Shown here one piece after another: positions 1,316-34,344 of a stretch of DNA of 64,000 nt. The notes beneath the pieces were generated by a model. The model ran no database searches. It had not been told where the DNA came from and was given only the letters and a program-made list of their open reading frames with translations. The stretch is from Escherichia coli. Lineage in GTDB: Bacteria; Pseudomonadota; Gammaproteobacteria; Enterobacterales; Enterobacteriaceae. The first letter of the stretch is position 1. Every line of letters begins with the position of its first letter. A program made the position numbers and the translations under genes. The DNA lies in NCBI RefSeq assembly GCF_041248615.1, contig NZ_CP158426.1, one strand, 5' to 3'.

Positions 1316-1962
1316 GCTGCACGCTCCCGCCCCTGGTTGTCTGTTGGTGACAGCGGAGCATTGCTGAATGCATTTGTTAATCTGGCAATATCCAACGCGT
1401 ATCCAGGGTGTAGTTGCACTGCCGGGTCTTCGCACTGATTACCCCAAACATCGAAACCATGAGACGACTGGCGGGCGAACAGTTCAATGCGAGAAACATC
1501 GCCTAACAATTGCACAAGTTTTTCACGAACGATATCTGGTTTTCTTGAATGCTCAAGCCGCGGTGCGGTAAATGACTGAACGATCCCTGCATTAATGCGC
1601 GTAGGTAGTTTTCCCTTTACCGCAAACAGGCAATCTTCACTATTGGCGCGAGTCATGTGCCCCATACCCATAACCAGTTTATCTGGTTGTCGACTACCAC
1701 ATTTTATCCACGTGAAGCCCTTCATCGTCATCAGACGAAATCCCCAGGCTTCAACAACTTTTAGTGCTTCGAGTGGTTGTGTTGGCACCCACCACATGGC
1801 CAACAGACAGTTTTCATCGGCCAAATCCCACACAGGAAGGCGGCAGATATCCATCACACTCATAACCGGATATTTAAAACCGGCACCGCGATTACCATCT
1901 GCGGCTTTGTCCCGGTATACCCAGGGTGGATCTGCATAGATTAGTGTGTATTTCTTAGTCAT
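1312..1962 (-). CDS. MT-A70 family DNA N6-adenine methyltransferase (orphan)
   Basis: Motif YADPPW near N-terminus (DPPW catalytic motif); no adjacent restriction endonuclease. Confidence 0.7.
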   Translation of the reverse strand: MTKKYTLIYADPPWVYRDKAADGNRGAGFKYPVMSVMDICRLPVWDLADENCLLAMWWVPTQPLEALKVVEAWGFRLMTMKGFTWIKCGSRQPDKLVMGMGHMTRANSEDCLFAVKGKLPTRINAGIVQSFTAPRLEHSRKPDIVREKLVQLLGDVSRIELFARQSSHGFDVWGNQCEDPAVQLHPGYALDIARLTNAFSNAPLSPTDNQGRERAA

Positions 1963-2254
1963 AAACCACCCCGCAACATCCTATACCGCTATAGTCGCCA
2001 CGGCGAAGGCCGTTACCTTTTGTGATACATTGGTCCCTGCGAACCGCGATCCTTGCACGCTCAACATCACCAGAAGCAACATCCATACACTGAAGCCAAA
2101 GGTGAGCGGCAATGCGGAACTGTCCTTTTTTCTCTCTTTCAATTGCGCGTTTTTCGATCTCTATCGCCGCAGGAGTAACGGCGACAATCTTTGACGGACT
2201 GCGCATTGAAACCTTGTTCATGTGATATTTTTCAAGTCGGCTTAACTTTCTCAC
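1955..2254 (-). CDS. Hypothetical early protein
   Basis: ORF in early leftward operon, 8-nt overlap with downstream MTase start; no recognised motif. Confidence 0.4.
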   Translation of the reverse strand: MRKLSRLEKYHMNKVSMRSPSKIVAVTPAAIEIEKRAIEREKKGQFRIAAHLWLQCMDVASGDVERARIAVRRDQCITKGNGLRRGDYSGIGCCGVVYD

Positions 2255-4361: not shown

Positions 4362-4672
4362 GCCGCGTCCCTCTGCCCATCAATCTGATCAGCCAGATCC
4401 CAGCGGGCGATAATTGCCATTGCCTCGCGCCGGTAGGCATCCATCAGTTCTTCGAACTCAGGGCTGTCTTTAGCAGCCTCCAGCACTTCCTGACGAACGC
4501 CTTTGCCTGTTACAACGTCGAAAGTTGAGGACAGTTGATGAAGTCGGATGCTCTCAATCAGTTCAACTTGTCGGTCATATAGCTGTTCTGACAGGCGGTA
4601 GTCCTTGTCGAATGCCAGCATGATTTTTTGAAGATTTTTCTGCTGATTAACGTTCATTATCAGCCCTCCCAT
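4358..4672 (-). CDS. Hypothetical early protein (104 aa)
   Basis: ORF in leftward early operon overlapping exonuclease start; no motif recognised. Confidence 0.45.
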   Translation of the reverse strand: MGGLIMNVNQQKNLQKIMLAFDKDYRLSEQLYDRQVELIESIRLHQLSSTFDVVTGKGVRQEVLEAAKDSPEFEELMDAYRREAMAIIARWDLADQIDGQRDAA

Positions 4673-4965: not shown

Positions 4966-5550
4966 TTATTGTTTGTTTTTTTCGTTCTGGTTGATGACAA
5001 ATTCAATGTAACTTTCGATCTTTGCCTTCTCTGTTTCAGGTAACAATGCGTAGCGCGAGCGGTCATAGTTGATAGTTGCAGGGTCATGCGGATGAATCAG
5101 TAGTTCATATCCGTGACGCCCGAATGCAGATGCAACATTCTCCAGGGTGGAAATGGAAACGCTGACTTCATTGTTTAACAGGCGGCTTATTGTCACCTGG
5201 GCGACGCCGGATGCGCGGTGAAGTTTTCCCTGAGTTGAAAGGTCGCGGCTTTCACTCATCCAGCGTTCCAGGTTGTGAGCTGCCAGCTGACCAATGTCGC
5301 TTGGGCCGACAGGCTGAAAACCTTCCTGAGAAAGCGAGCGATCGATATCAAGCCAGTTACGGGGTTTATTGGCGGCAGCTTCAATTTTTCGCGCAACCTG
5401 GTCGCCGATAACCTTCTTGCCAAGAGCCCAGCGGTTTACCAGATTTGCCTGAGTTCCAAGTTTTTCTGCCATCCGCGTCTGAACACCATTGAATTCACGG
5501 TCGATCAAGTCGTTGAGATTTTGCCTGCGGACGTCCTGGATACTTTTCAT
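4966..5550 (-). CDS. CI-like prophage repressor with two HTH (XRE-type) domains, no S24 peptidase domain
   Basis: 194 aa; two HTH-like segments (res ~10-65 and ~100-150); divergent from Cro-like gene; operator clusters on both sides. Confidence 0.6.
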   Translation of the reverse strand: MKSIQDVRRQNLNDLIDREFNGVQTRMAEKLGTQANLVNRWALGKKVIGDQVARKIEAAANKPRNWLDIDRSLSQEGFQPVGPSDIGQLAAHNLERWMSESRDLSTQGKLHRASGVAQVTISRLLNNEVSVSISTLENVASAFGRHGYELLIHPHDPATINYDRSRYALLPETEKAKIESYIEFVINQNEKNKQ

Positions 5551-5990: not shown

Positions 5991-6005
5991 GTACCTCAAA
6001 GGTAA
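5991..6005. promoter_or_regulatory. Operator-like site GTACCTCAAAGGTAA downstream of cro terminator
   Basis: Imperfect TTACC-N5-GGTAA palindrome preceded by ATATCTATTCGTA, a 13-mer that recurs at 34241. Confidence 0.45.
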
Positions 6006-11414: not shown

Positions 11415-11688
11415 CCTGCAACTAGCCGTTAAAGGTGAATACTTCGATGCCATCATTCGCGGAGAGAAAACGGAAGAGTATCGCCTGTGTAATGACTACT
11501 GGAATAAGCGAATTATGTTCAGGGATTATGACCGACTGATTATCACAAAGGGATATCCGAAGCGCGACGACTCCAGTCGTAGAATTGACGTCCCGTATGA
11601 CGGATATGAAATCAAGACAATCACACATCCCCACTTCGGCGATAAACCGGTAAAGGTATACGCGATAAAGGTAAATATTGATGGCTAA
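11407..11688 (+). CDS. ASCH-domain-like protein
   Basis: 93 aa; GEKTEEYR resembles ASCH GxKTxExR motif. Confidence 0.45.
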   Translation: MANLQLAVKGEYFDAIIRGEKTEEYRLCNDYWNKRIMFRDYDRLIITKGYPKRDDSSRRIDVPYDGYEIKTITHPHFGDKPVKVYAIKVNIDG

Positions 11689-12019
11689 ATCAGCAGCAGA
11701 GCGCAAAGCCGCTCAGAGAGCCAGACAAGCTGCATCTGGTGTGCGTAAGCTGGAGATTGTGCTTGATGCTCAGGAAATTGAAATGCTGGAGCGTAACTGC
11801 GCCGCCCGGCGCCCTGGTCGAGATCCCTATGAAATGGCCGAGTACATCGCGCTGCTGATCCGCCAGGATGATGCCCGGGTGCGCGGGCGTATAAAATCGA
11901 TCAGCAGAAAACGTTGCGGTAAGTGCGGCGAGAGAGTTCCAGTTAATTCATGCCCGTGCAATGGTGACTCGCAATGCTGGGTGACTAAAGGCTGGCATGA
12001 AACGAAATTAATAGTGTGA
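11678..12019 (+). CDS. Hypothetical protein with C-terminal Cys cluster (CGKCG...CPCNGDSQC); candidate regulator
   Basis: 113 aa; stop codon TGA lies inside palindrome GTGACATGTCAC; last gene before packaging module. Confidence 0.45.
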   Translation: MMAKSAAERKAAQRARQAASGVRKLEIVLDAQEIEMLERNCAARRPGRDPYEMAEYIALLIRQDDARVRGRIKSISRKRCGKCGERVPVNSCPCNGDSQCWVTKGWHETKLIV

Positions 12020-12027
12020 CATGTCAC
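12016..12027. repeat. 12-bp perfect palindrome GTGACATGTCAC (copy 1 of 3)
   Basis: Exact palindrome read in sequence; overlaps stop of upstream gene; terminator 41 bp downstream. Confidence 0.9.
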
Positions 12028-12068
12028 GAGTAGATTATGCATGATGAATTTGATGTGTTTTGAATACT

Positions 12069-12094
12069 GCCGCCAACTATGGCGGCTTTATTTT
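12069..12094 (+). terminator. Rho-independent terminator between early/middle genes and packaging module
   Basis: Stem GCCGCCA/TGGCGGC, loop ACTA, followed by TTTATTTT. Confidence 0.7.
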
Positions 12095-12105
12095 GCATGG
12101 TACTA

Positions 12106-12120
12106 TTACCACAACGGTAA
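12106..12120. promoter_or_regulatory. Operator-like palindrome TTACCACAACGGTAA upstream of terS (weaker second site 12124-12138)
   Basis: Perfect half-sites, 18 bp upstream of terS ATG. Confidence 0.5.
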
Positions 12121-12137
12121 CTATTACCACGGTGGTT

Positions 12138-12734
12138 ATGATGCCTGCTGAACCTAAAACCTATAAACGCAAATCAACGCAATTTAAGCCACTAACAGCA
12201 ATGCAGGAGGCTTATTGCCAGTCATACATCAAAACGCCTGAAAACCAGACTCAGGCAGCGATTAACGCAGGATTCTCCCCAAATACAGCGGCAGTTAAAG
12301 CCAGTGTCATGATGCGCGATGAACGCATTCAAAAACGGATTGCCGAGTTGATGGAGGAGCGCAACAAACGAATGCGCGTCAGTGCTGATTACGTTCTCAT
12401 GCGCCTGGTGGAGATCGACCAGATGGACGTGATCGATATCCTCAACGACGATGGGAGCCTTAAACCAATCCGTGAGTGGCCGAAAATCTGGCGCACTACG
12501 CTTAGTGGCTTTGATCTGTCATCGACCATCATGAACATGAACGAGGATTCGATAGAGACAATCCTCAAAAAAATTAAATGGCCTGACAAGGTGAAGAACC
12601 TCGAACTGATTGGTAAGCACGTCGACGTCAACGCATTCAAAGAACGCCTGGATGTTAATGTGAATGTGACAATTGCTGATCGCATAGCGGCAGCCAGGAA
12701 GAGACTGAAAGAACGTCAGGATGGCAATCAGTGA
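12138..12734 (+). CDS. Terminase small subunit
   Basis: LTAMQEAYCQSY...QTQAAINAGFSPNTAAVKAS...RIQKRIAEL resembles small-terminase family signature; track start 12060 lies inside terminator hairpin and is rejected. Confidence 0.75.
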   Translation: MMPAEPKTYKRKSTQFKPLTAMQEAYCQSYIKTPENQTQAAINAGFSPNTAAVKASVMMRDERIQKRIAELMEERNKRMRVSADYVLMRLVEIDQMDVIDILNDDGSLKPIREWPKIWRTTLSGFDLSSTIMNMNEDSIETILKKIKWPDKVKNLELIGKHVDVNAFKERLDVNVNVTIADRIAAARKRLKERQDGNQ

Positions 12735-14206: not shown

Positions 14207-14280
14207 TCCGCTGGTGGGGATAATACTGCTGATATCCTCTGGTGAGGATAAAACAAAGCCAGCTCATCGGCTGGCTGTTT

Positions 14281-14292
14281 GTGACATGTCAC
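14281..14292. repeat. 12-bp palindrome GTGACATGTCAC (copy 2 of 3)
   Basis: Exact; 4 bp past stop of minus-strand gene 14297..14653 and directly followed (minus orientation) by hairpin AGCCAGC/GCTGGCT plus T-run. Confidence 0.9.
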
Positions 14293-14296
14293 GGTG

Positions 14297-14653
14297 TTAT
14301 TGCTCGCTTAACTTCTGCTTCAGCAAGTAACCTTCGAGCATCCAGATTTTGTTTACAGCATTCTGCCGGGCAATCTTCCGACCAATTTCTGCATCAAAAT
14401 TTTCCGGACTTGCACAGGCACTCTCTCCGGTGACGGTGAAGCCATTCTTCAGTACCAATACGCAGAAAGTCAGGAGGTCTGTAGATTTATGCGCTGTCCA
14501 TGAATCGCCAACACCCATATTGGCAGCACGAATGCCGTCATAAGCAGTAAAGAAATGCTCTTCAAGAATGATGCTTTCGATATATTGAGGCGTAACGCGC
14601 GGTGCCGTTTTGCCTTTCTCAACGATTTCTTTTTCGATTTGCTGGTCGTTCAT
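14297..14653 (-). CDS. Hypothetical moron protein, antisense to virion genes
   Basis: 118 aa ORF with SD AAGGTGAG upstream of ATG; lies between terL and portal on opposite strand with own terminator; family unknown. Confidence 0.5.
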   Translation of the reverse strand: MNDQQIEKEIVEKGKTAPRVTPQYIESIILEEHFFTAYDGIRAANMGVGDSWTAHKSTDLLTFCVLVLKNGFTVTGESACASPENFDAEIGRKIARQNAVNKIWMLEGYLLKQKLSEQ

Positions 14654-14766
14654 AATCTCACCTTAAAAAAATGCCCGGCGAACCTGGCGAACTGGAAGCA
14701 ATGAGTTATGCCTTCCGTGGCTGTACGGGTTTACAGCATGAAGTCATCGCAATGGCGTCCTGCTGT

Positions 14767-14809
14767 AAAAAAGGGCGGTGATAGTCCTTCAAGGGAAACT
14801 ATCACCGCC
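14767..14809 (-). terminator. Rho-independent terminator downstream of tRNA-Arg
   Basis: 12-bp perfect stem GGCGGTGATAGT/ACTATCACCGCC with A-run on plus strand (T-run on minus). Confidence 0.7.
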
Positions 14810-14852
14810 AAGCCCCTGGAACTTCTGGCATCACGGTCCTTAGGCGTGATTC

Positions 14853-14929
14853 TGGCGTGGCATGCAGGATTCGAACCTGCGACCAACCGCTTAGAAGGCG
14901 GTTGCTCTGTCCGACTGAGCTAATGCCAC
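14853..14929 (-). tRNA. tRNA-Arg (anticodon UCU), phage-encoded
   Basis: 77 nt; reverse complement GTGGCATTAGCTCAGTCGGACAGAGCAACCGCCTTCTAAGCGGTTGGTCGCAGGTTCGAATCCTGCATGCCACGCCA; 7-bp acceptor stem, T-loop GGTTCGAATCC, anticodon loop CTTCTAA, encoded CCA; close to E. coli argU in layout. Confidence 0.85.
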
Positions 14930-15266: not shown

Positions 15267-15356
15267 TAATTTGTGCGTTAAATGTCAACTGTCTACGATA
15301 AATAAATCATATGTGGTTAAATTGGTAATAATTTAATTGCGTACGGAGTCATTGAT

Positions 15357-31530: not shown

Positions 31531-31827
31531 ATGCAAGCTATAGGATTCATTGTTTATATCGTCGTTGGTCTTTTTCAGTTGGCAGCAATTATGGCTGGGC
31601 TTGAATCATGGTGGGGATTGCACTGGATAATTGCAGCCCCCATCGCTTTCATCGTGAGCTATATTCCATTTGTTGGAGCGATTGTTGGTATGGTTGGCGC
31701 TGTGGATGTATGGCGGTGGGAGTGGTGGCAGGCTGGCCTTCTATTCTTTGGTGGGATAATCTTTGCTATTGTCTGCGGTGGAATGTCATCATTTTTCGAA
31801 TGGCTATCATTCAGAAAAGAGACGTGA
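31531..31827 (+). CDS. Small integral membrane protein (3 predicted TM helices)
   Basis: 98 aa, highly hydrophobic; stop TGA lies inside GTGACATGTCAC. Confidence 0.5.
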   Translation: MQAIGFIVYIVVGLFQLAAIMAGLESWWGLHWIIAAPIAFIVSYIPFVGAIVGMVGAVDVWRWEWWQAGLLFFGGIIFAIVCGGMSSFFEWLSFRKET

Positions 31828-31835
31828 CATGTCAC
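31824..31835. repeat. 12-bp palindrome GTGACATGTCAC (copy 3 of 3)
   Basis: Exact; overlaps stop codon of membrane protein gene; terminator hairpin starts at next base. Confidence 0.9.
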
Positions 31836-31860
31836 AGGCCGCTTTCGCGGCCTTGTTTTT
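31836..31860 (+). terminator. Rho-independent terminator
   Basis: Stem AGGCCGC/GCGGCCT, loop TTTC, followed by TGTTTTT. Confidence 0.7.
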
Positions 31861-32117: not shown

Positions 32118-32655
32118 ACCAAAACTTGTACCACGGGGATTTATCCTTCAATGGACAATCCTTCCATCGTGTGGCCAACCATTCATATTCTTTAAAATAT
32201 GTGTTTATGTTTTCTTTTTCTCTAATGGCTTGTATAAGAGGTAGCGCAATCTGATAGTTATTTACAACGGAGCTGTAAAATACTTCCTTAATCATGGTCT
32301 CATCATAAGTTTTCCGCTTCACGCTCACAGCCATGCGTTCGTAGAAACCTAGACAGTAAATTATTTCTCTCTTCTCTGTCTTTTCTTCATCCGTAAGATC
32401 AGCCTGCCCATTGCTTGGATACATATAAGAGCGGAATGATTTGTTCGATTCGTGAATGCGGCGCATAGTAGATAGGCCTTTCTTATAATCTACATCAAAC
32501 CTGCTTTCACCAAGGAATACTGAAGTGTGTACTTTTCTCGCTGTATTTACATTATAAATAATAGTAGCGATAGCTATGAACAAGCCAAGCGAAACCGCGA
32601 CTGCACTTACGATTTGAGCCACAGCCATGGCAAATTGCATTTCTTCACTTAACAC
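32116..32655 (-). CDS. AT-rich moron: membrane-anchored protein (N-terminal TM helix plus ~140-aa cytoplasmic domain); candidate superinfection-exclusion / abortive-infection factor
   Basis: 179 aa; GC visibly lower than flanking phage DNA; own GTG start with GGAGA SD, own terminator; lies in a position analogous to P22 sieA (between ejection genes and ant). Confidence 0.55.
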   Translation of the reverse strand: MLSEEMQFAMAVAQIVSAVAVSLGLFIAIATIIYNVNTARKVHTSVFLGESRFDVDYKKGLSTMRRIHESNKSFRSYMYPSNGQADLTDEEKTEKREIIYCLGFYERMAVSVKRKTYDETMIKEVFYSSVVNNYQIALPLIQAIREKENINTYFKEYEWLATRWKDCPLKDKSPWYKFW

Positions 32656-34225: not shown

Positions 34226-34240
34226 TCACCTGAAAGGTAA
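34226..34240. promoter_or_regulatory. Operator-like palindrome TCACCTGAAAGGTAA in divergent region upstream of tailspike; followed by ATATGTGGTT-N5-GGTAAT (34271-34291)
   Basis: TTACC-N5-GGTAA variant; shares ATATCTATTCGTA 13-mer with site at 5981. Confidence 0.45.
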
Positions 34241-34344
34241 TATCTATTCGTATTTACAGTCTTTCTATCCATATGTGGTTTTTCAGGTAATAGAATAACC
34301 AGATATGCGGCGCAACGGGTGCTGCGACTATCTGGAGATTTAAC

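Follow-up and report, generated by a model that had tools for sequence, protein, structure and literature searches.

The gene and its predicted product

The window, i.e., the whole stretch of 64,000 nucleotides (nt) of Escherichia coli contig NZ_CP158426.1 (assembly GCF_041248615.1) that was analysed, carries a prophage of the phiV10/epsilon15-like type (Uetakevirus). A gene on its plus strand (11681..12019), a homologue of phiV10 gp55 and epsilon15 gp49, is predicted to encode a protein with a ribbon-helix-helix (RHH) fold and a zinc knuckle, and its stop codon is part of a 12-bp palindrome that recurs in the window. This RHH-zinc gene is the final early gene ahead of terS, the next gene downstream, which starts at 12141 and encodes a Terminase_2 small subunit (Pfam, E 1e-29). 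Two starts are available, TTG 11678 for a protein of 113 amino acids (aa) and ATG 11681 for a protein of 112 aa (MAKSAAERK...). Due to the overlap of the ATG with the stop codon of the upstream ASCH-domain gene (ATGGCTAA) and the fact that homologues are almost all 112 aa long, ATG 11681 is the likelier start. Apart from this shift of the start, the features named in a preliminary description, which reported a 113-aa open reading frame (ORF) at 11678-12019 as the last gene before the packaging module, with a basic helical N-terminus, a C-terminal cysteine cluster and a stop codon inside the first palindrome, were all recovered: the N-terminus is basic with a helix predicted over residues 5-20, the cysteines C79-x2-C82, C91-x-C93, and C99 are present, and the TGA codon (12017-12019) lies within GTGACATGTCAC (12016-12027).

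Over nearly its full length the protein matches PHROG 536 (E 1.1e-54; residues 1-111 align to positions 2-114 of a 115-position profile), whose label “transcriptional regulator” is an annotation. Pfam yielded no family for the protein at E <= 1. At E <= 0.001, matches were obtained to 776 cluster representatives (90% identity), the best 120 of these 776 being all at least 77% identical, and to 184 clusters at 50% identity, while a locus search from a close alignment yielded only relatives of at least 90% identity. The gene region occurs in 639 out of 5,426 complete E. coli genomes with the annotation “hypothetical protein”. Family members are distributed over hosts of the Enterobacterales, Vibrio, and Aeromonas, including phages of Salmonella, Klebsiella, Yersinia, Vibrio, and Aeromonas. 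In the searchable literature, no paper on the family and none containing the 12-mer was found; the ZX5 paper deals with other genes.

Residue conservation was counted in 58 diverse family members. C79 and C82 occur in 58 out of 58 and C99 in 57, and at least one further cysteine is situated between C82 and C99 in all 58; judged from these sequences, a Cys4 site is thus conserved in the family. The most conserved part of the protein is a basic N-terminal arm with R8 (56/58), R13 (57/58), K9, and R15, and the outward-facing positions of the strand are variable. Further conserved patterns are G-x4-E-x2-L in the strand and EPYxxxEY.

The AlphaFold model of the monomer is of moderate quality (predicted local distance difference test, pLDDT, 68.8). 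The dimer was modelled as a tandem copy with a flexible linker, based on an alignment of 32 tandem homologues. In the tandem model, the RHH core reaches pLDDT values of 82-92; strand 22-28 pairs with strand 164-170, and next come helices 30-42 and 52-74, i.e., the order strand-helix-helix with two strands pairing in the dimer that characterizes the RHH fold. The dimer model superposes on TraY, single-chain Arc, AvtR, PutA, and CopG. Foldseek gave weak RHH-flavoured matches for the monomer and was uninformative for the tandem model. At the level of sequence profiles, the YbfE (“LexA regulated protein”) model is matched by 22 out of 58 members (best E 1.5e-5, below the curated cut-off), the RepA/CopB model by two out of 58, and RHH_5, RepB-RCR_reg, and RHH_1 by one or two members each, all of the latter sub-threshold. 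In case of the C-terminal half, the best matches of the family profile in PDB are TraR (E 0.045) and YbiI (E 0.06), both below threshold, hhalign assigns a probability of 69% to TraR, and the TraR/YbiI models of NCBIfam are matched sub-threshold by two to three of the 58 members (best E 3.2e-4). From these models and profiles we predict an RHH dimer of the YbfE/CopB-like type fused to a TraR-like zinc knuckle, with a basic arm (R8, K9, R13, R15), an RHH core, and a C-terminal Cys4 knuckle of TraR/DksA-like pattern.

With the RHH repressors of the CopG/Arc/MetJ type, of which YbfE and IncFII CopB/RepA2 are nearest, the protein has in common the basic N-terminal arm followed by strand-helix-helix. 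Unlike these repressors, the phage family adds a long helix and the C-terminal Cys4 knuckle, shows no match at a curated cut-off, and has its site at the 3' end of the gene instead of in the promoter. The likeness to the DksA/TraR C4 proteins (F-plasmid TraR, YbiI) consists of a helix, CxxCGxx(I/L)P...C, and a short helix. However, the second CxxC of their CxxC-x17-CxxC pattern is replaced in the phage family by a mid-loop cysteine and C99, and the acidic-tipped, channel-inserting N-terminal helix is absent, the equivalent helix belonging to the RHH core. P2-like phages often have a TraR-like gene in the slot that follows gene A, and in a P2-like phage this slot is occupied by the RHH-zinc gene.

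A palindrome linked to the gene

The palindrome has the form GTGAC-N2-GTCAC (12 bp), and its first copy in the window, site 1 (12016..12027), a putative operator, starts 1 nt ahead of the TGA of the gene. Exact copies of the 12-mer occur three times in the window (12016, 14281, and 31824), compared to 0.13 expected from shuffles, an expectation that allows one mismatch. In a search against Rfam the palindrome was unmatched, a tRNA being the only RNA found in the window.

Linkage of site and gene was tested by identifying family members through protein similarity alone and then examining their DNA, which covered 22 diverged lineages. An exact GTGAC-N2-GTCAC 1 nt before the TGA was observed in 13 out of 22, down to approximately 28% identity; these include Uetakeviruses (of Enterobacter, Salmonella, Klebsiella, and Citrobacter), Pantoea AH07, P2-like Yersinia (42%), N15-like (approximately 35%), and metagenomic/Vibrio-type lineages. 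In ZF40 the palindrome is situated 3 nt past the stop codon. Copies with one mismatch are located just after the stop codon in two lineages and overlap it in the register of the exact site in a third. Two lineages have the palindrome 140-230 nt downstream of the stop codon and a second copy approximately 20 nt ahead of terS. In one lineage it is situated at the start of the gene, and another has two tandem copies 2.1 kb away. Considering the close and Uetakevirus-type loci examined, 80 out of 83 have the site at the end of the gene.

The half-sites are invariant and the centre varies between seven dinucleotides (AT, AG, CT, CG, TG, AC, and GC). The same register is often found without a downstream start codon, and sequence mosaicism begins right after GTGACATGTCACGA. 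Six family-bearing genomes (240 kb) contain 17 copies, with copies in six out of six. On average, a palindrome of the 5-N2-5 type (1024 in total) reaches 0.27 copies, and the runner-up has 6, which corresponds to an approximately 60-fold enrichment over the average. The spacing in these genomes is strictly 2, with no copy for N0, N1, and N4-6 and a single one for N3.

A reading of the palindrome as an RNA hairpin was rejected, as its folding energy of only -1.2 kcal/mol is no better than that of shuffles and the half-sites show no covariation; these results favour a DNA site over an RNA element. A symmetric DNA-binding dimer would be expected to select just such a combination of invariant half-sites, free centre, and fixed spacing. 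The common register of gene and site in very diverged phages makes it very probable that the protein binds the palindrome, and its prediction as a site-specific DNA-binding dimer is well supported. The arms would then read GTGAC and the ribbon would lie over the variable centre, a picture in line with the best conserved part of the protein being its basic arm and with outward strand positions that vary as does the centre of the site. As the first copy of the site begins a single nucleotide ahead of the TGA of the gene, the two form a cassette that is passed on as a unit, and this pair of gene and site is found again in numerous temperate phages that are not related to each other.

Sites, terminators and neighbouring elements

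Downstream of site 1, the window retains the remnant of a deleted 70-aa gene (12037..12063, plus strand, ATG CAT GAT GAA TTT GAT GTG TTT TGA), an 8-codon fusion of the gene that relatives carry in full. In most E. coli relatives the complete gene (MPKIRYDLEDMRDN...) lies between palindrome and terminator, e.g., at 4357-4569 of the relative L013. In this type, a Shine-Dalgarno (SD) sequence and ATG follow directly after the palindrome, and the 3' end ...GATGAATTTGATGGACTTTGA is the same as that of the window remnant. The 70-aa protein has no match in Pfam. An intrinsic terminator-like hairpin is located between the regulator gene and terS (12069..12094, plus strand; stem 12069-12086, GCCGCCA/TGGCGGC, plus the T-tract TTTATTTT). 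Salmonella 66FD and Klebsiella phi13.3 share this element, and Citrobacter Omnitron has a different terminator in the same place; BUCT554 has none between site 1 and terS. In most Uetakeviruses site 1 is followed by a terminator. Just upstream of terS and outside the protein-site pair, GGTACTATTACC and GGTAACTATTACC repeats with a TATTACC-N5-GGTAA inverted repeat (12099..12128, plus strand) are kept in 66FD, Klebsiella phi13.3, and BUCT554, and could represent a pac-related, translational, or operator element.

Site 2 (14281..14292) is situated in the convergent junction of terL on the plus strand and a minus-strand moron of the N4-gp49/Sf6-gp66 family (14297-14653, PF13876, E 1.7e-34). The intrinsic terminator of this moron (14249..14276, minus strand; stem 14276-14257, then TTTGTTTT) is 4 nt from the site. 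The moron belongs to a minus-strand island between terL and the portal gene (14297-14929), which also contains a tRNA-Arg(TCT) gene (14853-14929, minus strand). Site 3 (31824..31835) includes the stop codon (TGA, 31825-31827) of a 98-aa ORF for a membrane protein (31531-31827), the last small ORF of the structural operon. A convergent gene for a small secreted protein lies opposite. Site 3 is abutted by an intrinsic terminator on the plus strand (31836..31860, AGGCCGC-UUUC-GCGGCCU, then TTGTTTTT).

The position of site 2 is kept in 66FD (with centre AG) and BUCT554, and that of site 3 in PAS61, 66FD, and BUCT554. At site 2, 66FD and BUCT554 have hairpins of other sequence in the same spacing, and at site 3 GGCCGC-loop-GCGGCC with other loops, again in the same spacing. 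Thus in the window, 66FD, and BUCT554, sites 2 and 3 are located 0-4 nt from terminators in convergent junctions. In one further relative (L110), two tandem sites occur in a convergent junction, and in other relatives sites are found between co-directional genes or within genes. Of the sites examined, not one falls within a divergent promoter region.

ZF40 (L099) contains two more exact copies of TGTGACATGTCACA, at 5125 and 7622, inside early genes flanking the cI/cro region, namely in gp08 and the cII-like gp12 (there encoding CDMSQ); their placement recalls that of lambda nutL/nutR. As a separate observation, a strong sigma-70-like promoter follows right after the palindrome in BUCT554 (L093, approximately 1795-2189), Klebsiella phi13.3 (L095, approximately 1795-2114), and Yersinia (L087, approximately 4375-4440), and is overlapped in all three by a LexA-box-like CTGT-N8-ACAG. 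The gene driven by this promoter in BUCT554 is small, its product begins with GFPSPAKDY and is UmuD-like by eye, and no terminator is situated between this gene and terS.

Boundary control and alternative readings

Tentatively, we propose that the protein may act as a boundary or termination-control factor at the early/late junction. Of the readings considered this one fits best to the location of the sites at the end of the protein's own gene, at convergent junctions, and next to one-directional terminators. The protein would be made from the early rightward operon and would then occupy site 1 at the end of that operon as well as sites 2 and 3 at the convergent junctions by terminators. At these boundaries the bound dimer would control RNA polymerase traffic, its symmetric block complementing the one-directional terminators. 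Such a block would limit read-through of the early operon into terS and the late genes and feed back negatively on the operon that encodes the protein. During lytic growth it would also insulate transcription units that converge.

Several points weigh against this proposal. A block set by an early protein before terS is the opposite of what late expression needs, and in Vibrio K308 and L004 a site approximately 20 nt upstream of the terS start is placed where a strong block would harm the phage. Terminators beside the sites are a feature of the Uetakeviruses, unseen in P2-like, N15-like, and ZF40 phages, and sites in ZF40 and BUCT554 are intragenic. The order site 1, terminator, late genes fits antitermination as well. 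A Mu-like family member has no site nearby, and three complete phages without the gene, found in a motif-selected sample, carry exact copies of the palindrome. Furthermore, fold, family, site statistics, gene-site linkage, and site positions were computed, whereas binding and the effect on transcription including its sign (block versus bypass) are inferred from sequence.

The main rival to a boundary factor, which we regard as rather unlikely, is a site-loaded antiterminator similar to lambda Q. The protein would bind the palindrome and modify passing RNA polymerase, perhaps via its TraR-like zinc module, for read-through of the terminators at 12069-12094 and after site 3, and the late genes would be switched on once the protein accumulates. 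The succession of gene, site, strong terminator, and terS resembles Q-QBE-tR', since in lambda, too, the regulator is last in the early operon and is followed by a DNA site and a terminator before the late genes (Q/QBE/PR'/tR'), both regulators being zinc proteins (that of the phage by prediction). This order is kept in 66FD and Klebsiella phi13.3 and, with an unrelated terminator, in Omnitron. Neither a sigma-70-like promoter within the 54 nt that separate terminator and terS nor a gene of the Q, N, or Ogr type among the Uetakevirus early genes was found. A weak TraR/DksA-type similarity is present as well, and several distant relatives carry the gene shortly upstream of lysis genes, which in two of them are followed by packaging genes. 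However, site 2 precedes the terminator of the minus-strand moron, bypass at site 3 would send polymerase into converging genes, and BUCT554 has no terminator to be overcome between site and terS. No match to any Q family was obtained in Pfam, the label of PHROG 536 is not that of an antiterminator, and no conserved promoter or pause element accompanies the palindrome; in contrast to lambda, extra sites are located at convergent junctions. In other phages the family coexists with an annotated Q (N15-like phage), with Mor (Mu-like prophage), and with an Ogr homologue (P2-like phage).

Less probable still is an architectural or host-directed role related to MatP-matS, in which the protein would organise or bridge phage DNA, shield it from MatP/MukBEF, or interfere with host matS, and transcription would not be the target. 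MatP contains an RHH, as the phage protein does by prediction, and both would act as RHH-containing dimers. The hosts of the family (Enterobacterales, Vibrio, and Aeromonas) are what we take to be the MatP/MukBEF-bearing clade. The matS site is GTGAC[AG]N[TC]GTCAC with 13 bp (PMC3603311, PMC8669397), and true matS is avoided by prophages (PMC3603311). The half-sites GTGAC/GTCAC are identical, the phage site being the E. coli consensus GTGACATTGTCAC minus one central base, and both systems have few sites per genome, away from promoters; linkage of gene and site is also reminiscent of parB-parS. On the other hand, the phage spacing is 2 and not 3 (17 copies of N2 versus one of N3 in the six genomes), the common half-site could be a coincidence, and the tight, conserved pairing with Uetakevirus terminators would remain without explanation. 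Homology to MatP was rejected, with an hhalign probability of 0.2%, no MatP among the PDB profile matches, and no four-helix bundle or coiled coil in the phage protein. Due to this lack of MatP sequence similarity and the strictly different spacing, the resemblance to matS is a lead and not a sign of membership.

It is tempting to combine these elements, in a scenario to which we assign a low probability, into a new type of elongation control: an RHH dimer on a matS-like palindrome would present a TraR/DksA-like zinc module that engages oncoming RNA polymerase and forces either termination or resistance to termination. Such a cassette would have spread across podo-, myo-, and siphoviruses of MatP-bearing bacteria, with a site that perhaps shares ancestry with matS and a spacing that avoids cross-talk with MatP.

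It appears very unlikely that the protein acts elsewhere and that the palindrome is not its site but has a different purpose, either as the target of another factor from phage or host or as a sequence for module junctions or translational coupling (GAGGTG TGA C ATG). The mosaic breakpoints right after GTGACATGTCACGA are compatible with a junction sequence. A reverse search for the 14-mer TGTGACATGTCACA in viral contigs returned 120 pieces, 70 of which lack the RHH-zinc gene despite at least 450 nt on either side of the site. In two of the three complete phages without the gene, the 12-mer overlaps a cro stop codon and the ATG with which the following gene begins. These are the lambdoid Klebsiella phage ST16-OXA48phi5.3 (L231, 7537-7548) and E. 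coli phage SaltyDalty (L232, 18870-18881), in both of which the 12-mer holds the TGA of a Cro/YdaS-like gene and the downstream ATG (GAGGTG TGA C ATG TCA C). The 12-mer can thus arise or serve in other settings. However, the reverse search is biased by motif selection and covers contig fragments only, so that it cannot measure linkage or conservation, and still 35 of its 120 pieces carry the gene. The unbiased forward test, with the same register in 13 out of 22 lineages, seven different centres, and often no downstream start, as well as the enrichment over the average 5-N2-5 palindrome in family-bearing genomes, speak against a mere junction.

Least likely of all is a classical late-promoter activator like Ogr/Delta/B, which would recruit RNA polymerase to late promoters by way of the palindrome and/or ATATGTGGTT as its binding site. 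The preliminary description had proposed the protein as a candidate late regulator by analogy to Ogr/Delta. Of this proposal, the DNA-binding regulator is supported, with the palindrome as its target by the same-register linkage, and the Ogr-like late activator is not. The features in common with Ogr/Delta/B of P2, P4, and 186 are those of small phage zinc proteins (here by prediction) encoded outside the late operons, in this case last in the early operon. The PHROG label, the lack of another late regulator found in Uetakeviruses, and the resemblance of the left half GTGACA to a -35 hexamer would also suit an activator. However, the fold is unrelated, PF04606 is not matched in Pfam (Ogr_Delta pattern CxxC-x22-CxxxxC), and P2 Ogr found nothing better than E 1.7 in the window by tblastn; this query finds a homologue in a Yersinia phage at E 3e-27. 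Ogr acts at TGT-N12-ACA near -55, whereas the site linked to the family, GTGAC-N2-GTCAC, occurs at 3' ends and, next to terminators, at convergent junctions, and does not lie in the 5' promoter regions upstream of late clusters. The P2-like Yersinia phage vB_YenM_31.17 (NC_070918.1, L089) has both a family member and an unannotated Ogr homologue (32431-32643, plus strand, 56% identical to P2 Ogr), together with TGT-N12-ACA motifs in its late promoter regions; the record lists a minus-strand hypothetical gp44 (32350-32628) at the locus of this homologue. Due to the coexistence with this homologue, the annotated Q, and Mor, a general role as late activator is unsupported. The protein is very probably not a promoter activator of the Ogr/Delta type.

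A candidate promoter GTGACA-18-CATGAT (12016-12045) was also rejected: it is not conserved, no -10 occurs at a fixed distance from the palindrome in relatives, its -10 falls into the deleted-gene remnant, and in most relatives SD and ATG directly follow the palindrome. Considering other late regulators among the Uetakevirus early genes, none was found, only CI, Cro, AlpA-like, and PerC-like genes being present. The PerC-family activator homologue (1955-2254, minus strand, PF06069 E 6e-7, PHROG 868) of the leftward early operon and the AlpA-like gene next to it (2364-2612) were judged unlikely late regulators from the known roles of their families.

The regions upstream of the portal unit (15309-15333) and the tailspike (34271-34297) have ATATGTGGTT-N5-GGTAATA in common and are possible late promoters with a non-canonical -35. 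The ATATGTGGTT motif had been suggested as a target of the family; it shows no linkage to it, is absent from other family-bearing phages, and differs from the palindrome. A second palindrome, TTACCT-N3-AGGTAA(T), occurs in the window at 5992, 7938, 8000, and 15253 exactly and at 34228 with one mismatch. It is 5' intergenic, often runs into a -10-like TAATAAT, and either follows cro or precedes a DUF1064/resolvase-like gene, the portal unit, or the tailspike. Four copies each are found in PAS61, 66FD, and BUCT554, and none in the Yersinia, Vibrio, and ZF40 phages; it is restricted to Uetakeviruses and not linked to the family. For promoter-level control in Uetakeviruses, TTACCT-N3-AGGTAA is a better candidate than the GTGAC palindrome.

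The family would be a hitherto undescribed kind of RHH regulator that comes with its own operator. A common E. coli prophage gene that lacked a Pfam family and a named function is now paired with a precise 12-bp site, which makes the hypothesis directly testable. To our knowledge, the separation of early and late transcription in epsilon15/phiV10-like phages has not been described. Since phiV10 is used in O157 reporter assays (PMC11854483), the ends of its transcription units are also of practical value. Moreover, the near-identity of the site to matS raises the question whether phages copy, avoid, or interfere with the Ter-organising system of their host.

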